Below, piece by piece: positions 11,685 to 28,936 of a DNA stretch of 64,000 nucleotides. A program made the position numbers and the translations under genes. The stretch spans positions 4,586 to 68,585 of the forward strand of contig JAGVAH010000157.1 in NCBI GenBank assembly GCA_020060385.1, in the 5' to 3' direction. The stretch's first letter is position 1; each line of letters starts with the position of its first letter. This DNA comes from Syntrophobacterales bacterium (GTDB lineage Bacteria > Desulfobacterota > Desulfobaccia > Desulfobaccales > 0-14-0-80-60-11). The notes below the pieces were generated by a model. That model had not been told where the DNA came from. It made no database searches and was given only the letters and a program-made list of their open reading frames with translations.

Positions 11685-12160
11685 GGCAGGTGATCCTGGG
11701 GGTGGACCCCGGTTCCCGGGACACCGGGTTCGGGGTCATTGAGGGGGAGGGGGAGCATCTCCTGCATCTGGCTTCCGGGCGCATCCATGCCGGCCGCCCC
11801 CCGTCCCTGGAGAACCGCCTGCGTCAAATCTATGACGGCCTGACGGCCCTGATTAAAGAGCACCAGCCCCAGGCCCTGGCCCTGGAGGAGATCTTCCTGG
11901 CCGCCAACGTCCGCACCGCCTTTATTTTGGGGCAGGTGCGGGGGGTGGTCCTGCTGGCCGCGGCCCAGGCCGCGCTGCCCATCTTTCATTACCCCCCTGC
12001 CACGGTGAAAAAGGCGGTGGTGGGCTACGGCCAGGCCACCAAGGCCCAGGTGCAACTGATGATCGAACACCTCCTGGGTCTCAAAATCACCAACGAGCAC
12101 GCCGCGGACGCCCTGGCCGTGGGCGTCTGCCACCACTTCCACTGCCGCTGGCCGCGTTGA
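11681..12160 (+). CDS. ruvC: Holliday junction resolvase RuvC
   Basis: 159 aa: [43 protein letters not shown] start overlaps the yebC stop. Confidence 0.9.
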
Positions 12161-13413: not shown

Positions 13414-13442
13414 TTGCATTTTTGTGAAGACATAATTATAAT
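13414..13442 (+). promoter_or_regulatory. Sigma-70-type promoter candidate for the giant-ORF operon
   Basis: TTGCAT (13414-13419), 17-nt spacer, TATAAT (13437-13442) in an AT-rich patch about 360 nt upstream of the ORF A ATG. Preceded by two direct TGGCAGCTAAAT 12-mers (13351-13362, 13389-13400). Confidence 0.45.
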
Positions 13443-13802
13443 TAACCATATTTCGGTGGACCGTTCCCAACCAACTGACAACTTTTCCTGCAACTGTCCA
13501 ACAAGGAGCTCAAGTGCAAGAGGCCAAAATCCGGTCTGGCAGGCGCTGCAAAAGGTTGGCTCAAAAGGTTGTCTCCTCCGCAAACTTCCGCTTCACTGAT
13601 GCAGCCGGTTTAGTCATCGTCTGACCTGAGCGATAACGGGCCCGGTTACTGCCTGGCCCCCCTTCTCCTTCTCTCCAGCCAGACCATCCAAGCCCAAGCT
13701 TAACCCGCAGCCTGCCCTGAAGGATCGGGGAAAGGGCGGGGAATAAAGCCCAGCGGCGTTTACCTCCTTCCTTGGCATCTTTGACCAGGAGGTTTGACAG
13801 CC

Positions 13803-16800
13803 ATGGCCGAGGGTGGTTCTCCCGGTACCATTTTGGAAGCCTCGATCTCTGGGGTGCCTGCGGATCTGCGCCAGTGGCGCCTTATCAAAGGGGACCCGGA
13901 GGTTTTCGGAGTCTGGCTGGGGGATAGCTTCTATCCCCTGGCCCGGAGGGAGAATCTTGGCCTGGGCTTCCAGGAAGGCCTTCTGGGAGCCGGTTATGCC
14001 GCGGCCTGGAGGGATCGATCGGACTGCCTGGAACACCTGCCGCACCCTTTAGCCGACTTTTTCCGCCGGCAACCGGAGCGCTCCCAATTTTATCTGGTCT
14101 CCCGGAACTTGCCCGGAAATGCTGGACAGCCGGTGCCGTTGTTCACCCTGGCCAAAACGGACAGGGGCCAGGCAGTGGTTCTGGAACTCAATCCGGACTT
14201 CGCAGACCGCCGGGAGATCTATCTGGCCCTGGCTGTTTATAGCCTGGTCCAGGCCAACACCCCTTACCTCCACCACCGCTTCGATGCCCATGGGGATTTC
14301 CAGCGCCTGGGGGCCTTTTCCCAGGTAGAGCGCCACAGCACTGAGATGTCCAGGAAACACCTGGGCCAACGCATCTATTTCGAGGCAGAGGGCTGCACCC
14401 ACTGCCTCAAGTGCGCCGCCTCCTGCAGCGAAATGCAGGTGAGGCTGACCTCCGGGGGCTTAACGGTCCTGGGTCCGGCAGAAGATTATTGTACCGTCTG
14501 CCGCCTCTGCCTGGCGCATTGCCCGTATCTAAAGGATGTGCGTAAAGAAGACCTGACCCCGGACCGCCAGGCTGCACCTGCCGCCCACTTCACCGGGGGC
14601 GCCGCCGTCTATCTGACCCGGGAGGCGGCCCGGGAAGCCCAGGCCTGGTTTCAGGGGTTGGCCGCATCCCCAGGGCGTGGAGGCGATTGGCGGATTTCCC
14701 TGCTTTATCAAGGAGCCTCCTGGCAGGAAGGGGAGCCACCGGGACCGGAAATCCGGCAGTATTCCCTTCAGGAGCAAAGGCCCGGGAGTCCTTACAAACC
14801 TTTGCTGATTACGGCACATATCTCACCCCAGGGGGGGACCGCACCACCCTTGCTGATTCTCCGCTTGCTGAGCCGGGTGGCGGTCTTTCTCACCAGCGCT
14901 GCGGGGGAGATCGAGGCCGAACTGCTGCGAGGCGTAGACTCAATGGGGGTCCTCTACCAGGGGGTGGTGGATGGAGAAAAATTTGGCAGCCCCGGGGACA
15001 TGCCCCTGGCGTCCAAACTCCATCGCCTCCACCGGCTGGCCCCGGACGCGGATTTGGCGGCTTTGGTCACCGCCGGGCAAGTGGATGTGGTGTTGACCCC
15101 GACCCTGGAGGCCTTGCCGGCGCCGGTTTCCTCCTATTTCCTGGAAGCCACCGGCAACCTGGCCCACCTCCTGGCTCCCCAGATCTTTCAGGCCTTCACC
15201 TTCAGCCCGGAGCCTCTCCTCCATGAGATCCGGGAACTCTGTCTGGAGGTTTTTCCCCGCTATCCGCAACTCCTGGCCGCAGAAGCAGAACGGGCCCGGA
15301 CCTACCTGGCCGATTTGCCCCGCTATGGCCCGGAGATCCACGCCCGCTATCGTACCTGGGGCATGGCCCCGGGCCACAGCGCCTGCCCCACCTGCGCGGA
15401 ATTGCAAACCCTGGCGGTGCCCCTCTATATGGCCATGCTCCTCTCCCTGTCCCGGGGGCAGGTTCCCCAGGTGACCTTCACCTGCGAAACCGGGTGCATG
15501 AGCGAGACCCTCAATAAGGTTAAAGAAGTGGCCCAAAAAGTGAAAGGGGGCCGCACCGTGTTTGGGGGTGGCTTCGCGTTCGGGGAAGCCGCGGCCATGT
15601 CCGAGGAGTGGGCCATGGCCCGGGGCGTCTTGCCCCAGGGTCGGCGCTACGTGGTGAGCCAGAGCGGGGATGGCGGCGCGGTCATCGGGCTGCCAGCTTG
15701 GCTCAACGCCCTGCGGCAGCGGTCCTTCCTCATCAAGGATCGGGAGGCCCAGGTACTGCATTTTATCAATGTCACCGATACCCAGGTCTATTCCAACACC
15801 GGGGGAGAGAGTTCGGCCACCTCCATGCTGGGCATGAGCACCCTCACCACCCCCCTGGGGCGCTTCCTGGTGGGCAATCAGCGCATCCAGTGGCAACTCA
15901 TCAACCTGGCCGCGGAATTTCCCGGGGTTCTGGTGGGGAGCGGGCATTCGGCCCATAAGGATCTGATGCAGGAATTCTGGGCGGAAGCCGACCGCCTGGG
16001 GCGTTCCGCTATCCGTTGGGATGTCACCCCCTGTCCGGAAACCGGTAAATTCTTCGGGGAAGATCCGGATCGTTTGGCCCGGATTATGGCCTATGCCGGG
16101 TTCCTCCCGGAGGTGGTATTTGTGGGCCGCTTGCGCAAACGGGTGGCTCCCATCAATCCCCGGGATCGCCACAAGAACTGGCGGGAATGGACCTCGGAGC
16201 CCCAGCCCATTTATTACTGGCTTGCCCAAGATCCCCGTTACCGTCCCTTGATCCGCCGGGACCTGGTGAGCGGCCACTGGGAGCCCATCAATCCCGCAGT
16301 CAGGGCCATCATCGCCCAGTTGGAGAGTTTCCGGGATGGCCTCAATCGTCAGATCGACCTGGAAAACCGCCTGGTCCGGGAGGCGGAGGAATATACCGCC
16401 GAATTTTTCCGGCATCTCCAGGCCGAATGGCAGAGACATCGCTACGTCCCGGAAGAGTTTCCCTATCATTTCCTGTTCAATGACCAGGGGGAACTGAAAC
16501 CTGAGTTCGGCCCGGCCTTGCCCCGGGATTTCCTGGAGGCGGTTTTGGGTCTGGATTACGTGAGGCAGTATGTGGTGGCCCGGGACGAACAGATGACCGG
16601 GGAGGTCCAGACCCTGCAAACTCCGGGTCCGGCTGCACAAGCAATCCCGCCGGACGGCGGCGAAGGGTTACCGCCCCCTGACCCCGTGGTAGCCATGGGG
16701 ACCACGGCTACCAGCTACGAGTCCGTGGCCGCGGCCCGGCAGGCGGAATTCCAGCGCCTGCTGGATCGCCTCCTGGACGACCGGGCCCTGGCCAAGCAGG

Positions 16801-19800
16801 CCCAGATTTCCCAGTATATTTTAGGGAAAGAGTTGGCCAGGGATTTCCAGGCTCAGGGAGGCATCTTTACCCGGGCTCCGGGGAGAGGAGCGGACCTGGC
16901 CCCGGCCCGCCGGGAGTTTCGCGATAGCCTCGCCGCGTTGGGGGAATTTGCCTTGGGCGTGGCCTCCCTGGCCGGGGAACGGGGCATCGCCCTCAACCGT
17001 CTGTTCTCCCAGTATTTCACCGGCAAAGGGGCCTGGGCCGGCATGGCCTGGCAGTTCGGGTCTTCCAAACGGGGCACCCCGGTTTTTTCCGCGACTTTTA
17101 TCTCCCACCGTCCCATCCAGCGCCAGGACGCGCTGTTGCGTTTTCCCTTTTACGTGCTCACCGTCACCAACTACGGGGATTTGAAATCCCAGCCGGATTT
17201 GTTTTACGACCACCTCCACCCCCAGGGTTATCTCATTATCAATACCCCCCGGACCCCGGCCGCCATTCACCAGGAATTGCTGGCCGGCTATGACGACCAC
17301 ACCCGCCAGGGGGTGGCCCGGGCCCAGGATGCGCCCCGGGGCGAGGCCCGGGAAGCGGTGAGCCAATGGTTGTTTGAAGTTCCCTATAACGCCCTGAACC
17401 GGGAGCAGCTGGATCAGGTTACCAAAGTCCTGGCCCTGGCCCAGGCCCGGGTGATCACCACCGACCTGGACGGGATTATGGCCCAGGTGACCGGCAGCAG
17501 CCGGGCGGTTTCCAATCTGGTGGCGGTGGCCCCCATGATGCGGGCCCTGGAGCTTTTGGGCATGCCGGTGAGCTTTGAGGCCGACTTGCCGGCCCTGACC
17601 GCGGGCTTTCCCGGGGCGGTGAAAAAAAATAAGCAGCTGACCGAGCAATATTTGACGGCCATGGGGCGGGCCTATCAGGAGTCCCAGGGATTTAGCGACG
17701 CCCCGCCGCAGCTCCCCCCCCATCCCGGGGGACCGTCCCCGGACCCGGGGGACTATTATCTGGAGATGGGGGGCACCCTGGCGGGCCAGGTCCTGAGCCA
17801 GCTGGCCACCAGGGACCACCCCTTATTTTATATCGGTTTTCCCATCACCCCCGCGGGCAACCCCTTTTATGCCATGGCCCAGGCCTATGCCAACGGCCAC
17901 CCCTATATCATGGTGGACGAAAACAATCCCTCGGAGAAGGTGGCCGCGGAAAAGCTGCTGGGGGTGGCCCGCACCGGCGGCGCCCTGCCGGTGACCTTCA
18001 CCGCCTCCCAGGGTTGGCGGCTCTTTGCGGAAATCATGCCCCAACTGGTGGGGGCTCGCCTCGAATGCCTCTTCATCCTGGCCAAACGGGCCCTGGCCGC
18101 GCCAGCCCTGAACATCGAGGAGAGCCATACGGATTTCATGACCTTCCGGGATGACGGGGCCATTATGCTCTCCCCCAAAGACATCCAGGAATTCGTCCCC
18201 TGCCTCTATCTGGCCCGGTTGCTGACGCATTTTGCCCGGCTGCCGGTGGTGGCCTCCCTGGGGGGCATCACCGATACCCACAAAATCAGCCTGGTCAAGG
18301 TTCCTCCGGACCAAGAGGTCCAGGCCTGGCTGGCCCGGGCCCTGGCGGAGGTGGATTTCCTGGAAGATAAGCTGCTGAATCGCCAGGGGGAGGTGATTGT
18401 CCACGGTCCCAGCGCCACCGGGGAAGTCTATCAGGAAACTCAATCGGCAGTGGAGAAGGCCCATGCCCTGGTGCCTCGGGTCTTCCCGTATGCGGCCCGC
18501 CTGGTGGAGGAATTGACGGGCTACCGCTTCCAGGAACTGGAAGTCGCGGCCACGGCCCCGGGGGAACCCCTGACCACCGGGCTGGTCCTCACCGGCTCTT
18601 TCTATCCCAACGCACAGGAGGCCATTGCCGAACTGGCCCAGGAGGGCTGGGGGGAGCTGGGGGCCATTTCCGTCAGGCTGTTCAATCCCTTTCCGGAAGA
18701 GGCCCTGGCTGAGATATTGTCCGGGGCCAAGCTGGTGACCATCATAGACCGCTCCAACAGTTTCGGCAGCGTGCCGCCTCTGGCCAGCCGGGTGATCACG
18801 GCCCTGGCCCGCGCCCGTAAAGGGCTGCCGCCCCTCTTTCGCGTCCTGGTGGGCGGCCTGGGGGGACGGGAGATCACCGTGCCCGAACTCAAAGAAATCA
18901 TCAAGTTCAGCCATCTGTGCCTGGCGCCCCGGCCCCAGGTAAAGCCGGGGCTCAGGCAGCGCCTCCTGGAGGGGGACCTGTTGCTCCAGGGATTACTGGC
19001 AGAACGGGCGGCCCTGGAAGCCAGGAGTCTGCAGCGGCATACGCGGCTCCCAGCCGCGGCCCGGTCCGAGGCCCAGGCCCCGGGAGCGCTTGCGGCCACC
19101 CGGGAAAGACTGGCCCAGGCCCTCATCCGGGGAGATTACCTCTCCGCCCTGGCCAATTACGGCTCCGTGGAGTTCGTCAATCCCCAGGAAGTTTGGGAGG
19201 AGACCCGGCTCCTCAAGAAGTTGATCATCCGCCTGGAGATGCTGCTGGCCCGGGAACTCATCAGCCAGGGACAGGCCGACTGGCGGGCAGCGGCAACACT
19301 CCTGGAATACGGGGTGCAGCCCGGAGATTTTGCCTTGGCGGTGCGCGGCCTTAATTCCCTGATCACCGCCGCGCCGGCCCCTGCGGCCTGGACTCTTTAT
19401 CGACTGGGTGAAGCCTACGGTCATAAATTCAGGCCCAGGGGCCTGACCTTAAGGGCACCGGTGGGGCCGCCTCCGGCGCCTCTGCCCCCGTCTGCGGCTC
19501 CAGAAATTGAGGAGCCGGCGCCACCGTTGGGCGCGGCCAGGCCCGAAGTTCCCTTTTCCCCCGCGGAGGCGGCTATTTTAGAGAAGGTCATGCGCGCCCT
19601 GATTGGGGAAAGCGCCCAACGGGAAACCCTGCGCAATCCCCTTGACCTGGAGCGGGAGACCCTGGATATCCTGGCCCGTGACCCGGCCTCCCAGCTTTTT
19701 GGCCGGGCCGATGGGGCCATCCGCCGGGCCTATCAGGAGGTGTATACCGGGGTCATCGACCGGACCCTGGCCGAGGGCATCCTGGGGCAACACTATGCCC

Positions 19801-20087
19801 CGGAGCTCAGGGAAATCTTTGCCGGCGAGGGGCTGCGGGCCCTGGAGCTGATGGCCCAGGCCACGGTGGCCTATTTTGCTCGGGGCCATGGGGAAGGGCC
19901 CCCTGACCGGGTAGAAGTGCAGCGACAGGCGGCTGGGGCAGTGGAACGTTACCTCCGGGAAGAGGTTTACCCCCGGTACCGCCGGACGCCGGGGTTTTAC
20001 CATGACTATTACCGGGCCTGGGTGGCGCCGGACCTGAAAGAGGCCATTGTCAGGGAAGTGGCGGCGATTAACTGGAAAACCCCATAA
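13803..20087 (+). CDS. Giant (about 2,095 aa) domain-permuted 2-oxoacid:ferredoxin oxidoreductase-like fusion protein
   Basis: ORF track 13794 (TTG); ATG 13803 is more likely (AGGAGG upstream). Numbering from 13794. Ferredoxin motifs: C201-x2-C-x2-C-x3-C and C233-x2-C-x2-C-x3-CP. PFOR TPP-binding module: ACPTC..TCETGC, SGDGGAVIG..NVTDTQVYSNTGGESSATS, TPCPE. Gamma/POR-like module: FGSSKRGTPVFSATFISHRPIQ. PFOR domain I: IGFPITPAGN, NPSEKVAAE, TFTASQGW, ESHTDFM. PFOR domain II: SVRLFNPFPEE, IIDRSNSFGS. Long unassigned N-terminal, internal and C-terminal stretches. Confidence 0.8.
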   Translation: MAEGGSPGTILEASISGVPADLRQWRLIKGDPEVFGVWLGDSFYPLARRENLGLGFQEGLLGAGYAAAWRDRSDCLEHLPHPLADFFRRQPERSQFYLVSRNLPGNAGQPVPLFTLAKTDRGQAVVLELNPDFADRREIYLALAVYSLVQANTPYLHHRFDAHGDFQRLGAFSQVERHSTEMSRKHLGQRIYFEAEGCTHCLKCAASCSEMQVRLTSGGLTVLGPAEDYCTVCRLCLAHCPYLKDVRKEDLTPDRQAAPAAHFTGGAAVYLTREAAREAQAWFQGLAASPGRGGDWRISLLYQGASWQEGEPPGPEIRQYSLQEQRPGSPYKPLLITAHISPQGGTAPPLLILRLLSRVAVFLTSAAGEIEAELLRGVDSMGVLYQGVVDGEKFGSPGDMPLASKLHRLHRLAPDADLAALVTAGQVDVVLTPTLEALPAPVSSYFLEATGNLAHLLAPQIFQAFTFSPEPLLHEIRELCLEVFPRYPQLLAAEAERARTYLADLPRYGPEIHARYRTWGMAPGHSACPTCAELQTLAVPLYMAMLLSLSRGQVPQVTFTCETGCMSETLNKVKEVAQKVKGGRTVFGGGFAFGEAAAMSEEWAMARGVLPQGRRYVVSQSGDGGAVIGLPAWLNALRQRSFLIKDREAQVLHFINVTDTQVYSNTGGESSATSMLGMSTLTTPLGRFLVGNQRIQWQLINLAAEFPGVLVGSGHSAHKDLMQEFWAEADRLGRSAIRWDVTPCPETGKFFGEDPDRLARIMAYAGFLPEVVFVGRLRKRVAPINPRDRHKNWREWTSEPQPIYYWLAQDPRYRPLIRRDLVSGHWEPINPAVRAIIAQLESFRDGLNRQIDLENRLVREAEEYTAEFFRHLQAEWQRHRYVPEEFPYHFLFNDQGELKPEFGPALPRDFLEAVLGLDYVRQYVVARDEQMTGEVQTLQTPGPAAQAIPPDGGEGLPPPDPVVAMGTTATSYESVAAARQAEFQRLLDRLLDDRALAKQAQISQYILGKELARDFQAQGGIFTRAPGRGADLAPARREFRDSLAALGEFALGVASLAGERGIALNRLFSQYFTGKGAWAGMAWQFGSSKRGTPVFSATFISHRPIQRQDALLRFPFYVLTVTNYGDLKSQPDLFYDHLHPQGYLIINTPRTPAAIHQELLAGYDDHTRQGVARAQDAPRGEAREAVSQWLFEVPYNALNREQLDQVTKVLALAQARVITTDLDGIMAQVTGSSRAVSNLVAVAPMMRALELLGMPVSFEADLPALTAGFPGAVKKNKQLTEQYLTAMGRAYQESQGFSDAPPQLPPHPGGPSPDPGDYYLEMGGTLAGQVLSQLATRDHPLFYIGFPITPAGNPFYAMAQAYANGHPYIMVDENNPSEKVAAEKLLGVARTGGALPVTFTASQGWRLFAEIMPQLVGARLECLFILAKRALAAPALNIEESHTDFMTFRDDGAIMLSPKDIQEFVPCLYLARLLTHFARLPVVASLGGITDTHKISLVKVPPDQEVQAWLARALAEVDFLEDKLLNRQGEVIVHGPSATGEVYQETQSAVEKAHALVPRVFPYAARLVEELTGYRFQELEVAATAPGEPLTTGLVLTGSFYPNAQEAIAELAQEGWGELGAISVRLFNPFPEEALAEILSGAKLVTIIDRSNSFGSVPPLASRVITALARARKGLPPLFRVLVGGLGGREITVPELKEIIKFSHLCLAPRPQVKPGLRQRLLEGDLLLQGLLAERAALEARSLQRHTRLPAAARSEAQAPGALAATRERLAQALIRGDYLSALANYGSVEFVNPQEVWEETRLLKKLIIRLEMLLARELISQGQADWRAAATLLEYGVQPGDFALAVRGLNSLITAAPAPAAWTLYRLGEAYGHKFRPRGLTLRAPVGPPPAPLPPSAAPEIEEPAPPLGAARPEVPFSPAEAAILEKVMRALIGESAQRETLRNPLDLERETLDILARDPASQLFGRADGAIRRAYQEVYTGVIDRTLAEGILGQHYAPELREIFAGEGLRALELMAQATVAYFARGHGEGPPDRVEVQRQAAGAVERYLREEVYPRYRRTPGFYHDYYRAWVAPDLKEAIVREVAAINWKTP

Positions 20088-20090
20088 GGT

Positions 20091-23000
20091 TTGGAGGAAG
20101 TTTTGGCATCGCATCCCCGGAGCGGGGTTTCTGAAACTGTCGGGGCAGGCCCCTGGGGGGACCTGCGTCCCCGGGTTTATAAAGCGATTCGGGCCGCGGC
20201 CGCGGAGCCGGCAGCCCCGGCGGACCGCCGCGCATTGCTGGAACACTGGCTGAGCCCCTTATTCCAGGAGGATACCCGCGAACTTAGCTTCCCGGAGGAA
20301 TTGGCCCAAGATCAGCAAGCCTTGTTTCAGGGCGGCCTGCAGCGAGCCGTCAACCGTTGCCGCGGCTACGCCGGGGCCTGGTTTGCCTGGGAGTCCCTGG
20401 ACCCGGAAGCCCTGGCCCGGGAAGTGAAGCAGGCGGTCAGGAGGGTGGCCCGGGAAGATGAGATGGCCCAGTCTCTGATTGAGGGGCAGGATCTCCAGGC
20501 AGAGGAAATCCCCCGGCTCCGGAAATATAGGTTGCGGCAGCGCTGGTGCGGCGGTGGGGAGGCTGCCGACGCCTTCCGGGTGGAAGAGTGGCTCCAGGAT
20601 GTGGCCTTTTTTAACCGGGAATTAATGGAGATCGGCAGTTGGGCCCGTTTATTCCATACCGTCGCCTTGCTCCATGGGGAGGGGATAAAGGCACCGGAAC
20701 TGAGGCGGCAGGCCCTGCTCTCGGTTCAGGAAAAAGTCATTAAGGGACAACCCCTGGAGTCCCTTGGGGAAGTGGTCATTTATTTGGAGGGCCGGGTAAG
20801 GGCCGGGGAATATGCGACCTCCGGGGAGAGCCTGGCCCCGCCCCTGGAGCCTGGGCTGTTTCCCGGCGAGCCTCAGGATGTCTGCCTGCTGCTGCGGCTG
20901 GGGCTGGTTTTCCTGGTCACCGGGGGCAGGCGGCCCGAACATCGGCAGCGCCTGGACTGGTTGGCAAAGCACCAGGACCTTAACGACCTGCGCGATTTAT
21001 TTCTCTTATTCCTGGCAGCCCTCCAGGGGCAAGACCCCCTGCCGCCCCCCTCGGCGGTGCTGGACCAGCTCCAGCGTCAGGGCTACCCCATTCACCACCA
21101 GGATTCCAGTTACGCCTACCGGGCCTTCATGGTGCCTCTGGAAGATTTGCCCGGCGTCTTGGAGGTAAGCCTCAGTTGGCCCCTGGACCCCGGGGCCCTC
21201 ACCGGAGATCCGGAACGAGACTTAAGCCTGGGTCGGGACCAGGGAGAAAGGCAGGGCCTCTGGCTCCAGGCCTTTAAAGAAGAGGCCCTGGCCTATTGTC
21301 GGGGCCGGGTGAAGCCGCTGCCTTACGCCGAGCTTATCCGCCCCGCGGCCCGGTTTGCCGCGGCTTGGCTGGCGGCTAGACAGTGTCGGGAGGGGAAAGC
21401 GCTGGATCTGCCAGCCCAGGTCCAAGAAGGGGTGAACCTCCTGCCGCCAGCCCTCTTGAAGCTCATTAGGCCTCGCAAGGGCTACGAACTGTCCCACCGC
21501 AGTCAACTGGAAAGATTGCTGCAGCAGGAATTCCAGGCCTACCACCAGGTCCTCTACCGGTGTCGCGGTGGCGGCTGCCTGGCCAATAAGGCTGATGAGG
21601 GCCGCTTCTTCCATCTGGCCGCGGCCCTGGCGCTGGCGTGCCGCCAGAGTGACTTAATGGCCTTGGGTCCGGAAGAGGTGACGGGATTGGAAGTGGCGGA
21701 AGTCTTGGACCATCTCCAGGAATTGGCCGCCACCCTTTCCCTGGACCTGGAACCTGCGGCCGCGCCCTACTGGCATGAATTCAAGGATTGGCTTAAGGAG
21801 AAGCTGGATTGGCCTTCCCTGGCGGGAGAGGCAGAAGACCCCGGTGGACTCCCGGTCAACTGGAAGTCTGAGGCGGATACCCTTTTCCAGGAACTGGCTG
21901 GGCAGCTTTACCGTTTGGTGGTGGCCAAGGCCCGGGCCGAGGGGGGGCTGCCTCTTCTTAAGGGGGACCGCCATCTGCTTGCCTGGCTGGCAGACTGGCT
22001 GACTCCGGAAAGGCGCGCCCTCCTTAAAGCCTCCGGCGCCCAGCTACTCAACACCATTAAGGCCCAAGCCCGGCAAGCGGTGTGGGAATCCTACCCCTTG
22101 CTGCTGGAGAGCAGGGAAGAACTGCTGGCCCTGAGCAAGTATTATCTGGGGGTGGAACTCAAGGGCCGGGATTTGGAGACCTATGCCCGGACCCAGCCGC
22201 TGGGGGACTTGGCCCCAAAAGTGGCGGCGGCTCTCCAGAGATGCCACATTCCTCCGGAAATTGCCGGTCCCGGCGGGGTGGAAGCGGTTATCCAAGAAGT
22301 GCTGCGGCCCCGAACCCTGGAGGCCACTGCGGCCCAACGGCAACTGGAGGAAAAGGTCCTGGCCCTTCTGCCCCGGACCGATTGCGGCTCCTGCGGCAGC
22401 CCGGGTTGCCTGGCTTTTGCACGACTGCTGGTCCAGGGCCGGGCCCAACCGAGCCAATGCCCCACCTCCCCCGCGGCCACCAAGGCGCGGCTGACCGGGA
22501 TTCTCGGGGCGACGCCCGCGGCGGCTCCGGAGCCTTATGTCCTCAGGCCCGGGGAAATCCCCCTGCTCACCTGCCTGTTAGACCCATATTTCGTGGCCCT
22601 GCGACAGCGGCTGGCCCAGGAATTGGACGCGGGTGAGCGGGAGAGGATTATCCCCTTTAAAAAGCGGGGGATTTCCATTCTGCAAATCGGCAAAAGTCCC
22701 GATGCCGCTGCCTTTCACAGGTATTTAGAGGATTATTTGGGCTCCGACGCGGCCAATCGCCTGAGCCGCAGCGACCGGGCCTTTCTGGCGGATTACGGCG
22801 ACTTGAGACTGGCTGCCGCCACCCGGGAGCTGGAAGATGAATTTTCCTGGGCCGCGTATGAGACCCGGATCAATCTCTCGAAATTCGCCCTGGCGGAAAG
22901 AGACCTGGCCCGGGGGGCCGCGGCCCATTATGACCGCTGCTTCTTTCTTTCAGACTTGTCTATTACGGACCGGACCCGGGTGCAGGAATTCCGCCGTCAA

Positions 23001-24941
23001 CGCTTCCTGTGCGATTTTTTGGAGGATTGGGAGCAAAGCTTGACGGAACTCTGGCAGGCTGGGTCCCGCATCGAAGATTGGCAGGACTTCTCCCATATTG
23101 TGGCTAAATCTTACTGGCATCAGGAATTCACCCCGGCCCCGAAAGAAATCATGCAGGCCTTGGGGCGGGCGATCCGGGAGCCCCTGCCCGCCTGGGGCCT
23201 ATCCTGGGGGGAAAGGCTGGTGCAGGAGCAGTGGCACGCCCTGGAAAGCGAAAAGTCACATCTGGCTGAACTACTCAGACGGCGACGGGTGGAAACTCCC
23301 GCAGACCTGGACCTTCTTGTCCGCGGCTTGGTGAACCGGGCCTGGCAGGATCTGACCGCCGGAACGCCGGCCCCGGGTCTGCCCCGTCCCGACCCGGTGC
23401 TGCAGATCAGCCGGAACGCCTTTAAGCAACTGGACCAGGCCAATCTCCACATGGCCGGGGACCTCAGGATGCATTGGGATGAACTCTCCGGGCGGGTCCG
23501 GGAGATTCTGGGCGCAGATACCCAGGTGGCGCCGGAGGAATTGGCCCGCCTGCAAGCCAGCGCCGCCGGCCTGGCCTGGCGAGAGATGTCCTCTTTGGGG
23601 AGGGCCTGGATCGAGGCCCAAATAACGGCCGCGGCGGAACGTCTCCTCTTGGAAGAAGTTGAGGTGGACCGTTTTCTTAAGGGGGATCTGCCTTTCCCCA
23701 GTCCCCGGACTCTGCGCCGGGCAGTCTGCCGGCTGTATGCGGCCGGCAAAAAAGGCCTTCACCACCTCCTGGAGGCCCTACACACGGCTATGCAGGCCTA
23801 TCCCCAAGGGTGGCAGGCGCTGGGAGAGGCGGCCCTGTTCCAGCTTATCTGGGCGCGTCTGGCCACCGGGCGATTCAGATTCACGGAGCCCGGGGCCGAT
23901 AACCTGGTGCGCAAGGTGGACCGCCTGCTCCGGGCCCAGGTGAGCAAGGACGTGCATAAGCTGAAGGCCTACATGTTTCTGTTGGCGAAGATGGAGGGCA
24001 ACCTGGATAAGCTCACGGCCCTGCTCCGGGAAATCCGGGAGACCTCGGATATTATCGAAGCCGCCTGGCTGGACTTTACCAAAGAACGCCTGGCTCTGCG
24101 CCGTTCCCCTCATCCTGAGGCGGCAGAGGGCCAAAAAGCGCCCTTGCTGCTGGCCCGCCTTGACCCGGCGCGGCTGAACCGTTACCTGGAAGAGGGTCTG
24201 CCCCGGGGGGAACCCCGGGAATGTAGCCGGGCCTATGAGGAACTGACCACCATCTTGGAATTCTATGTGGTCTCCGCGGCCCCCCAAGATTCTCCCCAGG
24301 AGATCTTCCAGCACCTGCAAGGGGGCTGCTACGATTTTACCGGGATTTCCCCCCAATCCTTATTGAAGACTTTACAGGTCCTCCACCAGCAGCGGGATCG
24401 CCTCCTGCCCCGCAAAATCAGCATTTGCACCTACGTCCTGGGCCATCGCCTGGCTGGCGCGGAACCACATCTGGCCCAGAGCGAAGCCGACTTTCTCAAT
24501 GAGAAGAAGGCCTTTCTGAAATCCGAGGCTTTGCCAGCGGAACTCCGCAAGGGACAACTGGCGGGCAACTGGGGGGTAGAGCTGGGAAAAATCAGAAATG
24601 CCCTCTACCTGCAAGTCTCTGATCTGCTGGAACAGGAACGCACGGAAAGTTTTGCCAACCGCATCGGCCAGATCATTGAGCGCCTGGAAGAAGAATACGC
24701 GGCCACCGTGGAGGCGTTCCAAAAGGGTGAGTTTAACCGCCGCACCGCTTTTTATATTTTCCGGCGCTTCCAGAAGGATCAGAATGAACTGTCGGGCGCG
24801 GATTTGGGACGTTTTCTCAAGCGGCACCAACCGGAAACCCTGGCGCAACTCCGGAGCCGGTTGGCGCCCCTGGTGGTGGCCGAGGTGGAGGGGCAGCTGG
24901 AAAAGATCTTATCCAAGTATCAGGGGGCGTTGTTGGGCTAG
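20091..24941 (+). CDS. Giant (1,616 aa) helical protein with a single RnfB/CFeSP-type [4Fe-4S] motif; function unknown
   Basis: Starts 3 nt after the ORF A stop (TTG 20091, or TTG 20103 with GGAGG 5 nt upstream). The only recognisable motif is LLPRTDCGSCGSPGCLAFARLLVQGRAQPSQCP, i.e. C765-x2-C-x4-C-x16-C790 (nt 22383-22460). The remainder is Leu/Ala/Glu/Arg-rich with uniform coding-like composition. Confidence 0.75.
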   Translation: MEEVLASHPRSGVSETVGAGPWGDLRPRVYKAIRAAAAEPAAPADRRALLEHWLSPLFQEDTRELSFPEELAQDQQALFQGGLQRAVNRCRGYAGAWFAWESLDPEALAREVKQAVRRVAREDEMAQSLIEGQDLQAEEIPRLRKYRLRQRWCGGGEAADAFRVEEWLQDVAFFNRELMEIGSWARLFHTVALLHGEGIKAPELRRQALLSVQEKVIKGQPLESLGEVVIYLEGRVRAGEYATSGESLAPPLEPGLFPGEPQDVCLLLRLGLVFLVTGGRRPEHRQRLDWLAKHQDLNDLRDLFLLFLAALQGQDPLPPPSAVLDQLQRQGYPIHHQDSSYAYRAFMVPLEDLPGVLEVSLSWPLDPGALTGDPERDLSLGRDQGERQGLWLQAFKEEALAYCRGRVKPLPYAELIRPAARFAAAWLAARQCREGKALDLPAQVQEGVNLLPPALLKLIRPRKGYELSHRSQLERLLQQEFQAYHQVLYRCRGGGCLANKADEGRFFHLAAALALACRQSDLMALGPEEVTGLEVAEVLDHLQELAATLSLDLEPAAAPYWHEFKDWLKEKLDWPSLAGEAEDPGGLPVNWKSEADTLFQELAGQLYRLVVAKARAEGGLPLLKGDRHLLAWLADWLTPERRALLKASGAQLLNTIKAQARQAVWESYPLLLESREELLALSKYYLGVELKGRDLETYARTQPLGDLAPKVAAALQRCHIPPEIAGPGGVEAVIQEVLRPRTLEATAAQRQLEEKVLALLPRTDCGSCGSPGCLAFARLLVQGRAQPSQCPTSPAATKARLTGILGATPAAAPEPYVLRPGEIPLLTCLLDPYFVALRQRLAQELDAGERERIIPFKKRGISILQIGKSPDAAAFHRYLEDYLGSDAANRLSRSDRAFLADYGDLRLAAATRELEDEFSWAAYETRINLSKFALAERDLARGAAAHYDRCFFLSDLSITDRTRVQEFRRQRFLCDFLEDWEQSLTELWQAGSRIEDWQDFSHIVAKSYWHQEFTPAPKEIMQALGRAIREPLPAWGLSWGERLVQEQWHALESEKSHLAELLRRRRVETPADLDLLVRGLVNRAWQDLTAGTPAPGLPRPDPVLQISRNAFKQLDQANLHMAGDLRMHWDELSGRVREILGADTQVAPEELARLQASAAGLAWREMSSLGRAWIEAQITAAAERLLLEEVEVDRFLKGDLPFPSPRTLRRAVCRLYAAGKKGLHHLLEALHTAMQAYPQGWQALGEAALFQLIWARLATGRFRFTEPGADNLVRKVDRLLRAQVSKDVHKLKAYMFLLAKMEGNLDKLTALLREIRETSDIIEAAWLDFTKERLALRRSPHPEAAEGQKAPLLLARLDPARLNRYLEEGLPRGEPRECSRAYEELTTILEFYVVSAAPQDSPQEIFQHLQGGCYDFTGISPQSLLKTLQVLHQQRDRLLPRKISICTYVLGHRLAGAEPHLAQSEADFLNEKKAFLKSEALPAELRKGQLAGNWGVELGKIRNALYLQVSDLLEQERTESFANRIGQIIERLEEEYAATVEAFQKGEFNRRTAFYIFRRFQKDQNELSGADLGRFLKRHQPETLAQLRSRLAPLVVAEVEGQLEKILSKYQGALLG

Positions 24942-25000
24942 GGGCGTCGTCCCGGAGGCGGCGGTCCTTGCCGGCCTGGGCCCTGGTTTAAGGAGCGCCC

Positions 25001-28000
25001 ATGGGTGCACAAATCCTGGAGATGCGGCTGAGTCCCGGCTGTCAGGAGGAAGCAGCCGGGGAATATGATCTGCGCCCGGACCTCACCCCGGAAGCGGCCG
25101 CAAAAGAATTGCCTCCGGCGGCGCGCCGGGTTTTAGCGCCGGTGGCGGCCGCGTTCGCGGCCCTGCATCGGGGTTTGGTGGAAGATTTGCCACTGACCGG
25201 CATCCGCAAGGTTCGCCTTTTCCAGAACCTGGGCGCCGCGGCGCGTTTGGCCCGGAGCCAGGAACCTGGGGCCGCCACCGCCGAAGTAGCGCTGGCCGCC
25301 CTGGGGGCCGGGCCGCAGTGGGTTTCATTGCTGGCTGACCTGCTGCGGGCCGCGGCCCTATATCCGGGGGTGCGGGATACCCGGCTGCCCCGGCGTTTCG
25401 CGCCCCTGGCCCGGATGGTGGCCCCCTTGCGCCACCTCCTGGAAAAGATCCGGGAAAGGGTTCAGCGCCAGCCTCGATTTGCCTCCCAGATTATGGGGCC
25501 CCTGGAAGCTGATGACTCCCAGCGGCTGGTTGACCCCTGGGGGCAGACCCGCCTGCTGCTCCAGCGTTTCCTATGCCGGCAGGACTGGCGGGAACGGGAT
25601 GTGCTGCACCTGATGCTGGATTTCCTCCAGGGGAGCCCTAACCTTTACGGGGAGCGCCTCCTGAACCTCTGGTTTTCCTTGAAGCGCCTGCAAGATGAGG
25701 AGCCCGCGGCCTATACCCGGATGGTGGCCGCGCTCATCAACGAAGGACGGGCCTATCTGGGAGAGCTCCCCCGCTGGCGCCACCTCTGCGGGATGGGGGA
25801 AACCGGGGGAACAGGGGCCTGGGAAGGGGCTGACACCTTCCGGGTCATCCAGGGCATGGCCGGGCTCCTGGGAGTACCCCCGGAGGATCTTCCGGCTCTT
25901 TCCGCCGCAACTGGCGCGGCGGGGATTGACTGGGACACCCTCAAGGCCGCAGCCTTACAAACAGGAGGCGGGTTCTCCCCCTTAAAACCCTTGGAGAGGG
26001 CTTCTCTCTTCCTGGCCGCGGAGCTGTTCCCCGAAAATTTGGGCCATCGGGCCTTTCTGCGCTTCCTCTTGGAAAACGAAGAGCCTTACCGGCAGTTGCT
26101 GGCCACCTGCTACAGCTCATTGGAAACGCAAGAGGCCCAGCTTGCCAGGATTTTAACCGCGTTTAACGGGCACCCGGCCAATATCGAAAAACGGGTGCAT
26201 TACCGCCAGAGTGAGGCGGCCCAGTTGCTGCGGGTCTTCTTTTTGCGGCCCGATCCGGTGGAGGCCATCATTGACCGGGAGCGGAAAAAAGACATCTATT
26301 ACCGCCTCCCCGGGTTGCCAGGCCAGGCCCTGCTCCCCCAGGTGCTCCACGAATGCCAAAGCATCTTCCAGTACCTCACGCAGGAGGCCCTGAAACGGGT
26401 GGCCGCGGGTTTAGGGGTCGATCCTGCCGAGATTGGCCGGGTCATCGCCTCCTACAAGGAGTTTACGGTGGATCCCACCGGCCAGCACCTCCTTTATGTC
26501 TGCAAGGGCACCGCCTGCTTTCTGAGGGGCCAGCCCCACCTTTCCCAGGCCCTGGCCACCCGCCTGGGAGTGGAGGAAGGCCGGGTTTCCCCGGAGGGGG
26601 TGCAATTCTTTGAGCGGGATTGTTTTGGCACCTGTCATCTGGCCCCGGTGATCAAGGTGGGCCACACCTTTGTTGCCGCCTTGAGGCCGGAGGTAATCCC
26701 GCCCTTGATCGGCAAGCTCCTCAAGGGCCGCTCCTTCGCCAATCGCTCCGATTTCTTCAAGGCCGTTCGGGATAGCCTGGCGGAAGAAGATCAGGTGGTC
26801 CTGAGCCACTCTTGCCCCGTCCAGGGGGCCTGCGGGCTGGAGGTCACCCCGGAGCAATTAGAGGGCCTGGCCATTAACGGCCTGGGGGAGATCCGGGCCT
26901 GGCCGGAAAAGAAAGTCCTGGGAACCCTGGCGGAACGGAGCTACTCCTTCAGTTTTATGGATCCGTCTGGCAGCCGGCAATACGGCACCCTCATTACCGA
27001 TGCCGACGACTTTCTCCTGGGGGTGGTCAATGTCCCGGACCCCCGGGTGCAAAAGGGATTGGCGCGCACCCTGCGGCCCCGGGTAGTGCTTAAGGACCAT
27101 TACGTCCATTTGGAGGGACGCCCTCAGCCCCTGGGGGCCTATCACTCCAACAGCATCGCCTTGGGGAAGCCGGACGGCACCTACGGCAGCCTGGTCTTTG
27201 GGGAAGAGAACCTCCAGTCTCCCCCGGAAGAGACCTGTGGCTTGACCCCGGGTTTCCAGCGTCCGGTCCCCCCGGAATTTTTCCGGCGGCAAGACCGGCT
27301 CCTCCTGGGGTTTGTGGAGGGAGTGAACCCGGAATCCATCGATTCTTATCTGGAAAAGGGCGGCTACCAGGCCTTGAAAAAGGTTCTGGGTTACGGTCAG
27401 CCGGAGAAGAGCTGGCCGCCGGCAACCATCGTCCAGGAGATCATGGCCGCCAATCTCCGGGGCCGGGGGGGCGCGGGCTTCCCCACCGGCGTCAAGTGGG
27501 AGGCCATGCTTCAGGCTCGTCCCGAATCGCGGGCAGGAGACGAGGTGGACCTGCCTCTGAAGTTAATGGTGGCTAACGGTGACGAAGGCGACCCCGGCGC
27601 CTTTATGGACCGCACCTTGATCCAGGAACGGCCCCATCAGGTTCTGGAAGGGATGCTCATCGCCGCCCTGGCCACCGGCTGCCGCTATGGCGTCATCTAT
27701 GTCCGCAAGGAATACGAAGATGCGGTGCAGCGCCTGGAAAACGCCGTCTTTGAGGCCCGGCGCTACGGTTTCCTGGGGCGGCAGGTAATGGAAGTGGCGG
27801 ATTTCGACTTCGATGTGGAAATCCGCTTGGGTGCCGGGGCTTTTGTGGCCGGGGAAAAACGGGCCATTATGCGGGCCATCGCCGGCAAGCCCGCGGAGCC
27901 CGATCTTCAGGCGGTCTCCAATGTCAAGGGGGGACTGTGGGGCAAGCCCACCCTGCTGAACAACGTGGAAACCTTTGCCAATGTGCCTTTGATTATCAGC

Positions 28001-28936
28001 CGGGGCGGCGCCTGGTTCCGGGACCGGGGATACGGGGCCAGCGGCGGCAGCAAGATCTTTTCCGTGGCCGGGATTGTCAACCACACCGGCCTGGTGGAGG
28101 TGCGGTTCGGCCGCACCTTCAGGGACGTGCTGCAGATCGCCGGGGGCGTCCAGGAGGGGAAAAGGCTCGCTGGCGTCCAGATCGGCGGTCCCTCGGGGGC
28201 CATCCTCTCTTTGACCGGAGTCCGGGCCTACCTCCTGGATGCCCCCCTGGATTTCGATGTCTTCAACCGGGTGGGGGCCATGCTAGGTTCCGGCGGCCTG
28301 GTTTTCCTGGGGGAGGACGATGACGTGGTGCGGTTGGCCCGTCATTTTACCTCTTGGCTGGCCGCGGAATCCTGCGGCCAATGCCCCAGTTGCCTGAACG
28401 GCCTCGTCTCCCTGGGGGCCACCCTGGACCGCATCCTCAAAGGGGAGGGCGCCAGCCTGGATATCCACACCCTGTGGGGCAAAGCCGATATCATCCGGGC
28501 CGGCTCCCGGTGCGGATTGGGGCAGACAGCCCCCAACCCCGTGACCAGTTCCCTCAGATTCTTCCCGGTTTCCTATCTCCATTACCTTTTGGATAACCCC
28601 CGGATCGATGCCCCGGAGCTTTTCCTCAGCCTGGAGGCCTTACATCTCCTTACCCGGGGGGAGACCGCGCTCTCCACCGCCGCGCCTGGGCGCGTCTCCT
28701 TCTACCTGAAAAAGGGTTTGATCCGGTTCATCTTTGAGGAATTGACCAAACTGGACCGCTTTCGGCCGGGGACGGACAACCGCCCGGGCCGTTTCTTGAA
28801 ATTGCTCAACCTTACCCCGAACCAGGTGGGTTGGCGGGGCGTGCAGATGGAATATTCCCGGGAAACCATGGCCCAACATCCTTACCTCATGGTGGGGGCC
28901 TCAGGGGCAGGGGCAAAGGCGGAGTCCCGGGCTTAA
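25001..28936 (+). CDS. Giant (1,311 aa) NuoE-NuoF fusion flavoprotein (NAD(P)H/FMN/[2Fe-2S]/[4Fe-4S] module) with a ~480-aa unknown N-terminal region
   Basis: AAGGAG 8 nt upstream of the ATG. NuoE-type motif: C501-x4-C506..C541-x3-C545 (VCKGTACFLRG..CFGTCHLAP). NuoF-type motifs: NPESIDSYLEKGGYQALKKVL, LRGRGGAGFPTGVKW, NGDEGDPGAFMDR, GAGAFVAGEKRA, SLBB-like VEVRFGRTFRDVLQIAGG, and N3 cluster ESC1125GQCPSC-x39-C1171GLGQTAPNP. Confidence 0.85.
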   Translation: MGAQILEMRLSPGCQEEAAGEYDLRPDLTPEAAAKELPPAARRVLAPVAAAFAALHRGLVEDLPLTGIRKVRLFQNLGAAARLARSQEPGAATAEVALAALGAGPQWVSLLADLLRAAALYPGVRDTRLPRRFAPLARMVAPLRHLLEKIRERVQRQPRFASQIMGPLEADDSQRLVDPWGQTRLLLQRFLCRQDWRERDVLHLMLDFLQGSPNLYGERLLNLWFSLKRLQDEEPAAYTRMVAALINEGRAYLGELPRWRHLCGMGETGGTGAWEGADTFRVIQGMAGLLGVPPEDLPALSAATGAAGIDWDTLKAAALQTGGGFSPLKPLERASLFLAAELFPENLGHRAFLRFLLENEEPYRQLLATCYSSLETQEAQLARILTAFNGHPANIEKRVHYRQSEAAQLLRVFFLRPDPVEAIIDRERKKDIYYRLPGLPGQALLPQVLHECQSIFQYLTQEALKRVAAGLGVDPAEIGRVIASYKEFTVDPTGQHLLYVCKGTACFLRGQPHLSQALATRLGVEEGRVSPEGVQFFERDCFGTCHLAPVIKVGHTFVAALRPEVIPPLIGKLLKGRSFANRSDFFKAVRDSLAEEDQVVLSHSCPVQGACGLEVTPEQLEGLAINGLGEIRAWPEKKVLGTLAERSYSFSFMDPSGSRQYGTLITDADDFLLGVVNVPDPRVQKGLARTLRPRVVLKDHYVHLEGRPQPLGAYHSNSIALGKPDGTYGSLVFGEENLQSPPEETCGLTPGFQRPVPPEFFRRQDRLLLGFVEGVNPESIDSYLEKGGYQALKKVLGYGQPEKSWPPATIVQEIMAANLRGRGGAGFPTGVKWEAMLQARPESRAGDEVDLPLKLMVANGDEGDPGAFMDRTLIQERPHQVLEGMLIAALATGCRYGVIYVRKEYEDAVQRLENAVFEARRYGFLGRQVMEVADFDFDVEIRLGAGAFVAGEKRAIMRAIAGKPAEPDLQAVSNVKGGLWGKPTLLNNVETFANVPLIISRGGAWFRDRGYGASGGSKIFSVAGIVNHTGLVEVRFGRTFRDVLQIAGGVQEGKRLAGVQIGGPSGAILSLTGVRAYLLDAPLDFDVFNRVGAMLGSGGLVFLGEDDDVVRLARHFTSWLAAESCGQCPSCLNGLVSLGATLDRILKGEGASLDIHTLWGKADIIRAGSRCGLGQTAPNPVTSSLRFFPVSYLHYLLDNPRIDAPELFLSLEALHLLTRGETALSTAAPGRVSFYLKKGLIRFIFEELTKLDRFRPGTDNRPGRFLKLLNLTPNQVGWRGVQMEYSRETMAQHPYLMVGASGAGAKAESRA

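Follow-up and report, generated by a model that had tools for sequence, protein, structure and literature searches.

The pyruvate:NADP+ oxidoreductase (PNO) of Euglena and Cryptosporidium is a pyruvate:ferredoxin oxidoreductase (PFOR) coupled to a P450-reductase-like flavin mononucleotide (FMN)/flavin adenine dinucleotide (FAD) flavoprotein that reduces NADP+, for which ferredoxin is unnecessary. The NADH-dependent phenylglyoxylate dehydrogenase PadEFGHI of Azoarcus/Aromatoleum (NF045764, NF045766) is a bacterial enzyme of the 2-oxoacid:ferredoxin oxidoreductase (OFOR) type that reduces NAD+ directly with five normal-sized subunits; in place of NuoEF, its NAD module is an FAD protein related to the small subunit of glutamate synthase. 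Another enzyme, Por-Bfu, has been hypothesised from seven genes, BfuABC and PorDEFG, in Dehalococcoides and syntrophic Proteobacteria (Schut et al., 2022; PMC9304861). Here, we describe an operon of three giant genes, named A, B, and C, in a 64,000-nucleotide stretch of a Syntrophobacterales bacterium (assembly GCA_020060385.1, contig JAGVAH010000157.1, positions 4,586 to 68,585 of the forward strand; hereafter the window, in whose own numbering all positions are given). Judged from sequence and structure comparisons, the three products have a somewhat better than even chance of being a soluble, non-bifurcating 2-oxoacid:NAD(P)+ oxidoreductase that would work without need for free ferredoxin.

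Gene organization and distribution

The A-B-C genes are real, intact, conserved, and rare. ORF A (13803–20087, + strand) encodes a giant OFOR-like protein of 2094 amino acids (aa) with the domain order delta-beta-gamma-alpha; ORF B (20091–24941, +) encodes an all-alpha protein of 1616 aa with one central [4Fe-4S] domain, proposed as the bridge between A and C; and ORF C (25001–28936, +) encodes 1311 aa made up of an N-terminal domain, NuoE, a beta-rich insert, NuoF, and a short C-terminal tail. The spacing is 3 nt between A and B and 59 nt between B and C, and the total is 5,021–5,024 codons. For ORF A, the ATG at 13803 is preferred over the TTG at 13794, the first in-frame start listed, because AGGAGG (13788–13793) precedes it, so that the ribosome-binding site and likely start together span 13788–13805 (+). 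The database protein P0001 (JGI/NCBI) is the 2094-aa form of A, with 100% identity and 100% coverage. The ATG of ORF C is likewise preceded by AAGGAG. A promoter and terminator scan gave no signal above background for the operon. Its GC content between 13800 and 29000 is 0.62–0.66 vs. 0.54–0.61 in the flanking 2-kb bins, which could reflect horizontal acquisition or just a protein composition rich in Ala, Leu, Arg, Gly, and Pro.

A word-indexed search of 5.8 billion proteins returned 24–26 cluster-level relatives each for A, B, and C, all of them full-length orthologues, and 29 loci, without exception in Desulfobacterota, came from a scan that took one genome for each GTDB species. The carriers comprise Desulfobacca-like metagenome-assembled genomes (MAGs) and Syntrophobacterales, including Desulfosoma and Desulforhabdus MAGs, and three of them are cultured: Desulfacinum infernum DSM 9756, D. 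hydrothermale DSM 13146, and Desulfoferrobacter suflitae DRH4. In all, >20 independent assemblies, those of the three cultured strains among them, carry orthologues that are intact over their full length. The ORFs are far beyond chance since full-length homologues exist and the ratio of nonsynonymous to synonymous substitution (dN/dS) shows purifying selection. The genes A, B, and C are consecutive on one strand in 17 of the 17 loci long enough to show it, and also in L030, L031, L032, and L036. The flanks of the operon are unrelated between lineages, and the upstream genes are conserved only within Desulfacinum. An argument about metabolic partners from neighbouring genes was dropped, with these upstream genes confined to Desulfacinum and PPDK-like genes to L031 and L033. 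In databases, A, B, and C are annotated in generic terms, as hypothetical, or as '(Fe-S)-binding protein', and no paper describing the system was found among open-access papers.

Several relatives carry the three proteins in fewer chains. L010 has B and C in one open frame, P0084/L035 has them fused (2980 aa), and L034 carries two chains, of which the first joins A to the N-terminal half of B with its Fe-S motif (3063 aa) and the second joins the C-terminal half of B to C (2242 aa). In L033/P0107, a single gene (L033 10001–32422) encodes 7473 aa in the order A-B-C with additional sequence at both termini. The contig that carries it, 72.9 kb long and from an NCBI MAG, has a normal dcw cell-division cluster upstream of this gene. 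The extra N-terminal ~860 residues of this protein, which have a signal-peptide-like beginning, and the extra C-terminal ~650 have no Pfam matches. Because of the fusions, the 3-nt A/B gap, and the invariant gene order, A, B, and C very probably act as one physical complex. The way in which the fusion forms split B suggests that its N-terminal half would face A and its C-terminal half would face C. The frames are interrupted in L027, L028, and L012, and A appears as five separate tblastn pieces in each of the MAGs L027 and L028; these breaks in A, B, and C are read as probable assembly or sequencing error and not as pseudogenisation.

In 16 related loci (L004, L006–L009, L013, L017–L020, L025, L027, L028, and L030–L032), the next gene after C on its strand encodes a stand-alone GAF protein, for instance at 13809–14378 in L031 and 13985–15055 in L032. 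It has 189 aa and one GAF domain in Syntrophobacterales and 356 aa and two GAF domains in Desulfobacca-like genomes, with no output domain. In L012, the GAF gene lies upstream of the operon and is divergent (5177–6241, −). No GAF gene was found in the whole 64-kb window or in the examined parts of L036, L001, L003, and L015. The GAF protein may be a facultative regulatory subunit or allosteric regulator and not an obligatory one.

An earlier note, made from the letters of this DNA, had proposed three co-directional ORFs with gaps of 3 and 59 nt and ~5,020 codons, with which the ORF list and translations agree; its start at 13414 lies ~390 nt too far upstream, in non-coding and out-of-frame sequence. 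The motifs that it had named in A, B, and C were all recovered at their relative positions, Pfam and NCBIfam searches bear out its domain assignments and cofactor inventory, and its estimate that two thirds of the residues match nothing agrees with the ~68% found here to be without a Pfam or PDB match. It had also asked whether the three genes co-occur, and their order is kept in every informative locus; routinely frameshifted or dispersed orthologues, which it had named as grounds for refutation, are not what is seen, given the intact orthologues in >20 assemblies. Its suggestion that NuoEF serves the OFOR-like giant alone is borne out by strict synteny and by fusions up to the 7473-aa chain, and it rightly did not recognise the architecture as a described enzyme, the system being rare and without a published description in the open-access literature.

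Protein A and its OFOR modules

By its domains and motifs, A is predicted to be a complete and catalytically intact OFOR. The delta-type 2x[4Fe-4S] ferredoxin domain (residues 191–257; 14373–14573, +) matches PorD and, below the Pfam threshold, the Fer4 families, and has two CxxCxxCxxxC motifs (C198/201/204/208 and C230/233/236/240) whose eight cysteines are invariant. The thiamine pyrophosphate (TPP) module, known as PP/beta or domain VI (residues 516–800; 15348–16202, +), was detected only by NCBIfam PorB (36 bits) and PDB 9bt4_C, and it aligns with PFOR domain VI; its motifs are invariant in the family. It contains GDGG...NVTDTQVYSNTGGE together with C528, C531, C561, C565, and C744, of which C528, C531, C565 (C561), and C744 are the ligands of the proximal [4Fe-4S] cluster. 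The Mg/TPP motif GDG-x(24-30)-N is present as GDGG at residues 622–625 and TDTQVYSNTGGE at residues 658–669, invariant in 17 sequences. The gamma domain, or domain III, is the coenzyme A (CoA)-binding domain of OFORs (residues 1041–1290; 16923–17672, +); its match to Pfam POR (20.7 bits, residues 1063–1279) is below the 27.4 cut-off and falls in the expected place, and its glycine-rich block 'SLAGERGIA...FGSSKRGTPV' is invariant across the family alignment.

The alpha domains I (PYR) and II (residues 1330–1700; 17790–18902, +) match POR_N with 105 bits (residues 1341–1557), PFOR_II with a passing 48.7 bits (residues 1594–1695), and the Moorella PFOR 6cin with 102 bits. The motifs FPITP, NPSEK, and KRALAAP, which hold the catalytic Thr, the TPP-activating Glu, and the substrate Arg, respectively, are invariant in the family alignment and align with T31, E64, and R114 of PFOR. 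The identity of A to PFOR is only 25–29%, over ~15% of its length, and the OFOR catalytic positions, like the FMN and NADH motifs of NuoF in C, persist in relatives at 30–36% identity. The alpha module ranks NCBIfam models in the order PorA_Arch (113.6 bits), PFOR (110), Vor (79), PadG (60), oxalate (49), and Kor-type (27), and the top match of the beta module is PorB; all NCBIfam scores of A are far under the equivalog cut-offs. From this domain content, A would carry out the CoA-dependent oxidative decarboxylation of a 2-oxoacid, and pyruvate or a similar small oxoacid is weakly suggested as the substrate because Por-type models give the alpha and beta modules their highest scores. Four regions of A (residues 1–190, 258–515, 801–1040, and 1701–2094) have no family match.

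Protein B as a candidate Fe-S bridge

The only recognisable element of B is a PF04060 [4Fe-4S] domain (residues 746–800; 22326–22490, +) with the motif C765-x2-C768-x4-C773-x16-C790, which scores 47.5 bits over residues 760–791 against a gathering score of 23. Its profile matches 4djd_C, 8ahx_B, and 7zc6_B in the PDB, which belong to CFeSP and RnfB, and Foldseek superposes it on CFeSP (9fzy_F, 4djd_C) with a root-mean-square deviation of 1.0–1.4 A. The whole protein reaches no RnfB or AcsC cut-off in NCBIfam. The AlphaFold2 (AF2) model of residues 500–1616 is all-helical and of medium confidence (mean predicted local distance difference test score (pLDDT) 68.9, predicted template modelling score (pTM) 0.37), and a Foldseek search of this model against the PDB found only the 50-residue cluster domain, the rest giving generic helical repeats at E>0.1. 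Outside the cluster, the most conserved stretch is KLKAYMFLLAKMEGNLDKLTALLREIRETSDIIEAAWL (residues 1290–1335; 23958–24095, +), a run of invariant columns that is modelled as a helix with pLDDT <50 and without an intramolecular partner; it is proposed to be an inter-subunit docking helix whose partner is absent from the model. When the C-terminal half of B was used in an exhaustive hidden Markov model search of 1.84 billion cluster representatives, only 32 proteins were retrieved.

Protein C and its NuoE-NuoF module

Protein C begins with an alpha/beta and helical domain (residues 1–440; 25001–26320, +; AF2 pLDDT 84–92) that belongs to no family: it has no Pfam match and aligns to the 7473-aa fusion protein. 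The thioredoxin-like [2Fe-2S] domain of NuoE (residues 441–575; 26321–26725, +) scores 93.9 bits with PF01257 (2Fe-2S_thioredx, residues 447–572), matches nuoE_fam and HoxE too, and has the ligands C501, C506, C541, and C545 in the spacing Cx4Cx34Cx3C. A beta-rich insert (residues 576–775; 26726–27325, +), without a Pfam match, separates NuoE from NuoF, and its AF2 strands have pLDDT 75–91 over residues 590–735. The NuoF module (residues 776–1195; 27326–28585, +) matches Complex1_51K (134 bits), NADH_4Fe-4S (70 bits), SLBB (21 bits), and nuoF_fam (341 bits); it contains GRGGAGFPTG, GDEGDPGAFMDR, and GAGAFVAGEKRAIM, and the N3 ligands C1125, C1128, C1131, and C1171 are spaced CxxCxxCx39C. The FMN site GRGGAGFPTG and the NADH site GDEGDPG are invariant in the family.

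At the canonical GAGAY(F)xCGEE(T/S)AL motif, C has the invariant GAGAFVAGEKRAIM where HydB has GAGAFVCGEETALM, and where HydB reads GEETAL, all family members examined, distant fusion variants included, read GEKR[AG]I. The second Glu of GEET (E185 of Thermus thermophilus Nqo1, E183 of Escherichia coli NuoF) is assumed here to bind the adenosine ribose of NADH and, when mutated in E. coli, to let the site accept NADPH; a literature search confirmed neither point. The invariant change from Glu to Lys may, thus read, indicate NADP(H) rather than NAD(H) as the nucleotide of C.

Bifurcating Bfu enzymes are defined by an invariant BfuBC core with six clusters, and NuoF homologues without the clusters B2–B5 are non-bifurcating and make no use of ferredoxin (Schut et al., 2022; PMC9304861). 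The B2 ligands were not found in C: the Cys of 'CMVD' is missing, as is the His/Cys-x5-Cys that would follow the N3 motif; its sequence at the B2 positions, 'DDDVVRLARHF...ESCGQCPSC...YLHYLLDNPRID', is Cys-free there. There is likewise no C-terminal 2x[4Fe-4S] domain (B3, B4) and no extra N-terminal [2Fe-2S] domain (B5) in C, whose alignment to HydB stops at approximately residue 530 of 599, and no BfuA-, NuoG-, or HydA-like domain was found in A, B, C, or the neighbouring genes. On the Bfu features tested, the system is most simply interpreted as non-bifurcating.

Cofactors, selection, and the unmatched regions

By motif, the cofactors would be TPP and three [4Fe-4S] clusters in A, one [4Fe-4S] cluster in B, and one [2Fe-2S] cluster, one [4Fe-4S] cluster, and FMN in C. 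In family alignments of 14–22 sequences, which reach down to 27–45% identity, the only conserved cysteines of the three proteins are the 24 ligands of these six clusters (25 with C561).

Approximately 3,400 of the 5,021 residues (~68%) match no Pfam family or solved structure. Pfam searches of nine isolated unmatched segments at E<=1 gave noise only, full-length alignment profiles of B and A against all PDB sequences found the known domains only, and hhalign comparison of the A, B, and C family alignments with one another and with themselves revealed no module in common and no internal repeat (best probability 4%). No hidden ATPase came to light when the three proteins were scanned for Walker A. 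The dN/dS against L036, the closest relative with DNA, is 0.039 for the TPP domain of A, 0.067 for the cluster domain of B, 0.11–0.26 for the other catalytic modules (0.106 for the gamma domain of A), and 0.50 for the delta ferredoxin domain of A, a value from only 67 codons. Since their dN/dS is 0.21–0.40, the unmatched regions are under purifying selection and evolve faster than the catalytic core.

Proposed reaction and alternative explanations

In the proposed enzyme, A would oxidatively decarboxylate a 2-oxoacid with CoA at TPP to yield the acyl-CoA, and the electrons would pass through the proximal, medial, and distal clusters of A to the CFeSP/RnfB-type [4Fe-4S] cluster of B, and from there through the N3-type [4Fe-4S] cluster and FMN of C to NAD(P)+, the reverse path being possible. 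The [2Fe-2S] cluster of NuoE would lie to the side of this path, as N1a does in complex I, and B would stand in for the connecting subunit of other NuoEF enzymes (NuoG, FdsA, HoxU, or HydA). The ~3,400 unmatched residues would serve as scaffold and docking mass that holds the three modules, and in many genomes may also dock the small downstream GAF regulator. The oxidation of 2-oxoacids with NAD(P)+ is strongly exergonic, and the reductive synthesis of pyruvate from NAD(P)H needs a pull or extra coupling. In line with a non-bifurcating enzyme, C has only the N3-type and NuoE clusters, as do the non-bifurcating NuoF homologues (Schut et al., 2022; PMC9304861).

Several points weigh against this proposal. 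Nothing in it accounts for the need of ~3,400 extra residues; the substrate comes from a weak ranking of scores that are all far below the family cut-offs; and the order of the wire from A through B to C, taken from gene and fusion order only, is likewise putative. A keeps a normal ferredoxin-type delta domain and could thus still work with free ferredoxin. The NuoF of C is closer to the bifurcating HydB/BfuB (7q4v_B, 387 bits) than to Nqo1 of complex I (277 bits), its top Foldseek matches are HydB, NfnB, and BfuB, and it retains a Bfu-like 'GAFMDR'. The preference for NADP(H), which depends on the assumed role of the second Glu, is a lead and not a result. Pyruvate oxidation with NAD(P)+ also wastes ~120–180 mV, which is odd for energy-limited sulfate reducers. 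The potentials behind this figure are tabulated as well, and A202 and M204 of 'GAFMDR' are listed as Bfu-typical (Schut et al., 2022; PMC9304861).

The likeness of NuoF to HydB, NfnB, and BfuB and the retained 'GAFMDR' speak for a new flavin-based bifurcating or confurcating enzyme, a functional 'Por-Bfu' that couples a 2-oxoacid, NAD(P)(H), and free ferredoxin three ways, which we regard as unlikely, at about one chance in several. In such an enzyme, NAD(P)H and reduced ferredoxin could together drive pyruvate synthesis, or pyruvate could reduce both acceptors, with the B cluster and/or the delta clusters of A in place of the missing BfuB clusters. The FMN of C has two possible exits, N3 and the [2Fe-2S] cluster of NuoE, the carriers are energy-limited anaerobes, the large unexplained domains could give conformational gating, and a Por-Bfu enzyme has been hypothesised before (PMC9304861). 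Against it, all clusters of the BfuBC core beyond B1 and C1 are missing with no further conserved Cys in A, B, or C to replace them, no BfuA/NuoG-like subunit is encoded in the operon or beside it, and ferredoxin is no partner of homologues without B2–B5 (Schut et al., 2022; PMC9304861).

Slightly less probable still is the same wire run in the reductive direction, as a pyruvate (2-oxoacid) synthase that would draw on NAD(P)H to assimilate acetyl-CoA and CO2, pulled by PEP synthase or PPDK and possibly gated by the GAF protein. Desulfobacca, Desulfacinum, Desulfosoma, and Desulforhabdus are acetate-oxidising or completely oxidising sulfate reducers, so the carrier genera must make pyruvate from acetyl-CoA, and the Glu-to-Lys change in C, as far as the assumed role of the residue goes, suggests NADPH, the anabolic nucleotide. 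PPDK/PEP-synthase-like genes lie near the operon in L031 and L033, and the GAF protein follows C in 16 loci; but the former are restricted to these two loci, and the GAF gene is absent from the window and from the examined parts of the closest relatives L036 and L001. With the acetyl-CoA+CO2/pyruvate couple at approximately −500 mV (table in PMC9304861), NAD(P)H at approximately −320 to −380 mV is ~120–180 mV too positive without extra coupling, and A, B, and C contain no Walker A, hence no ATPase motif. It is improbable that A is an ordinary ferredoxin-dependent OFOR and B with C a separate ferredoxin:NAD(P)+ oxidoreductase, the two being co-expressed and co-localised, perhaps on a common scaffold, and exchanging electrons by free ferredoxin. 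The delta domain of A is a complete ferredoxin-reducing domain, B-C fusions (L010, L035) are commoner than A-B fusions, and FeS domains of the RnfB type are found in ferredoxin-dependent complexes; however, in L034 A is covalently joined to that half of B which holds the FeS domain, in L033 it forms one chain with the whole of B and C, no conserved ferredoxin gene lies beside the operon, and B and C lack a 2x[4Fe-4S] domain for ferredoxin docking. An artefact, by which chance ORFs in GC-rich DNA, mis-assembly, or pseudogenes would be mistaken for an enzyme, has next to no probability left and is already refuted: the GC content above that of the flanks, the adjoining broken ruvA, long antisense shadow ORFs, and the interrupted frames of L027, L028, and L012 might speak for it, but the intact orthologues in independent assemblies and cultured strains, the low dN/dS, and the invariant catalytic motifs speak against it.

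Within the preferred reading of a non-bifurcating 2-oxoacid:NAD(P)+ oxidoreductase, the unmatched mass has been considered as scaffold. It is doubtful, if conceivable, that this mass, that is, B outside its cluster, the N-terminal domain and beta insert of C, and the four regions of A, is itself functional, either in conformational gating that gives a bifurcation-like or otherwise energy-coupled link between an oxoacid couple at −500 mV and NAD(P)H without Bfu clusters, or in a higher-order assembly or metabolon with the GAF sensor. If it were so, A-B-C would be a new class of redox megacomplex, and the 7473-aa single chain would rank with the largest known redox enzymes. If the complex works in the way preferred here, strict anaerobes would have a hitherto unrecognised route that joins the very low-potential 2-oxoacid/acyl-CoA couple directly to the pyridine-nucleotide pool, and bacteria would have an analogue of the eukaryotic PNO, assembled from parts of complex I and a new Fe-S bridge protein. 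Such a complex would bear on the balance of ferredoxin and NAD(P)H in acetate- and propionate-degrading sulfate reducers and syntrophs and on the existence of NADPH-driven pyruvate synthesis. The operon also defines several large conserved domains without a known fold, its natural forms of three, two, and one polypeptides make the subunit interfaces predictable, and the three cultured carrier strains make the question directly testable.

Genomic surroundings

Upstream of the operon, the intact yebC (10935–11684) and ruvC (11681–12160) are followed by a remnant of the ruvA N-terminus (MIGFLEGELLDESPGQVLVKAGGAGYRLLIPRST; 13021–13127, +) that ends in an in-frame stop, and the usual yebC-ruvCAB arrangement is broken exactly where the GC-richer operon begins; the broken ruvA may mark a site of insertion or rearrangement. 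In the 1.6-kb gap between ruvC and ORF A lies a c-di-GMP-I riboswitch (RF01051; 12745–12830, −; 56 bits, E 8e-10), which precedes a small minus-strand ORF (start ~12637) with a signal- or lipoprotein-like N-terminus, and a terminator-like hairpin (12304–12291). The riboswitch is not part of the A-B-C operon. Flagellar genes are found further upstream (flhF-like 1426–2544, flhA 2534–4636, and fliM 8454–9437). A GTP-dependent PEP carboxykinase (38438–40291) is encoded ~10 kb downstream of the operon, and a GlgE-pathway alpha-glucan cluster occupies 54388–62126 (−), comprising a GlgB-like branching enzyme (54388–56409), a TreS-maltokinase fusion (56355–59690), and the GlgE maltosyltransferase (60042–62126).

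In L036, genes for an HdrA-like protein, MvhD (FlpD), and the small and large subunits of a NiFe hydrogenase (19899–24771) lie ~1 kb downstream of C and are probably unrelated to A-B-C because they are not conserved in other loci. The giant gene of L033 is adjoined (33690–39827) by one for a 2045-aa protein with PEP-utilizers and PPDK_N domains, and a second large PEP-utilising enzyme is also encoded there; the giant PPDK-like protein is unusual in its own right.

Comparison with known systems

Protein A shares its catalytic modules with the PFOR/OFOR superfamily (Moorella thermoacetica 6cin, Desulfocurvibacter africanus 1b0p, and PorABDG 9bt4), the gamma domain by a Pfam match below the cut-off, together with the catalytic Thr, Glu, Arg, and Asn and the GDG...N Mg-TPP motif. 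Its domain order is delta-beta-gamma-alpha, whereas that of PFOR is alpha-gamma-delta-beta, and it has ~1,100 extra residues in four inserts or extensions. While OFORs use free ferredoxin, A would be obligatorily linked to B and C instead. The 50-residue Cx2Cx4Cx16C cluster domain at residues 746–800 of B is the same as that of the CFeSP large subunit (AcsC/CfsA) and RnfB, but in B it sits midway in a helical protein of 1616 aa that has no corrinoid, TIM-barrel, or Rnf membrane parts.

Like the non-bifurcating NuoEF proteins (Nqo1/Nqo2, FdsB/FdsG, HoxF/HoxE, and HydB of Syntrophomonas/Syntrophus), C has FMN, N3, and the NuoE [2Fe-2S] cluster only; it differs in having NuoE and NuoF on one chain, a 440-aa N-domain, and a 200-aa beta insert, in GEKR in place of GEET, and in a partner of the NuoG/FdsA/HoxU type that appears to be replaced by the new helical protein B. 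With Por-Bfu and other Bfu enzymes, A-B-C shares the concept of an OFOR wired to a NuoEF-like NAD(H) module, and the NuoF of C is nearest to BfuB/HydB; unlike them, it lacks B2–B5, BfuA, and separate subunits of PorDEFG size and consists of three giant genes with a fused and permuted OFOR. Por-Bfu is itself uncharacterised. In the rare Type 4 Bfu, a partner other than BfuA feeds an intact BfuBC core (PMC9304861), which in C is incomplete. The option of confurcation or bifurcation raised in the earlier note is disfavoured in view of the absence of all B2–B5 clusters from C, and its opinion that PNO is the only functional precedent was too narrow, given Por-Bfu (PMC9304861) and, by NCBIfam names, PadE-I.

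The likeness to PNO is that of a PFOR coupled to a flavoprotein, possibly with the same nucleotide; A-B-C would use NuoE/NuoF through an extra Fe-S protein for this, and no Pfam matches to flavodoxin, FAD_binding_1, or NAD_binding_1, the domains expected of PNO, were found in A, B, or C. Against the PadG and PadI equivalog models, A scores 60.3 and 15.1 bits, with cut-offs of 700. As far as the sequences tell, PNO, PadEFGHI, and Por-Bfu each differ in architecture from A-B-C, whose chemistry is probably familiar and in which that architecture and the unexplained two thirds of the mass stand out.

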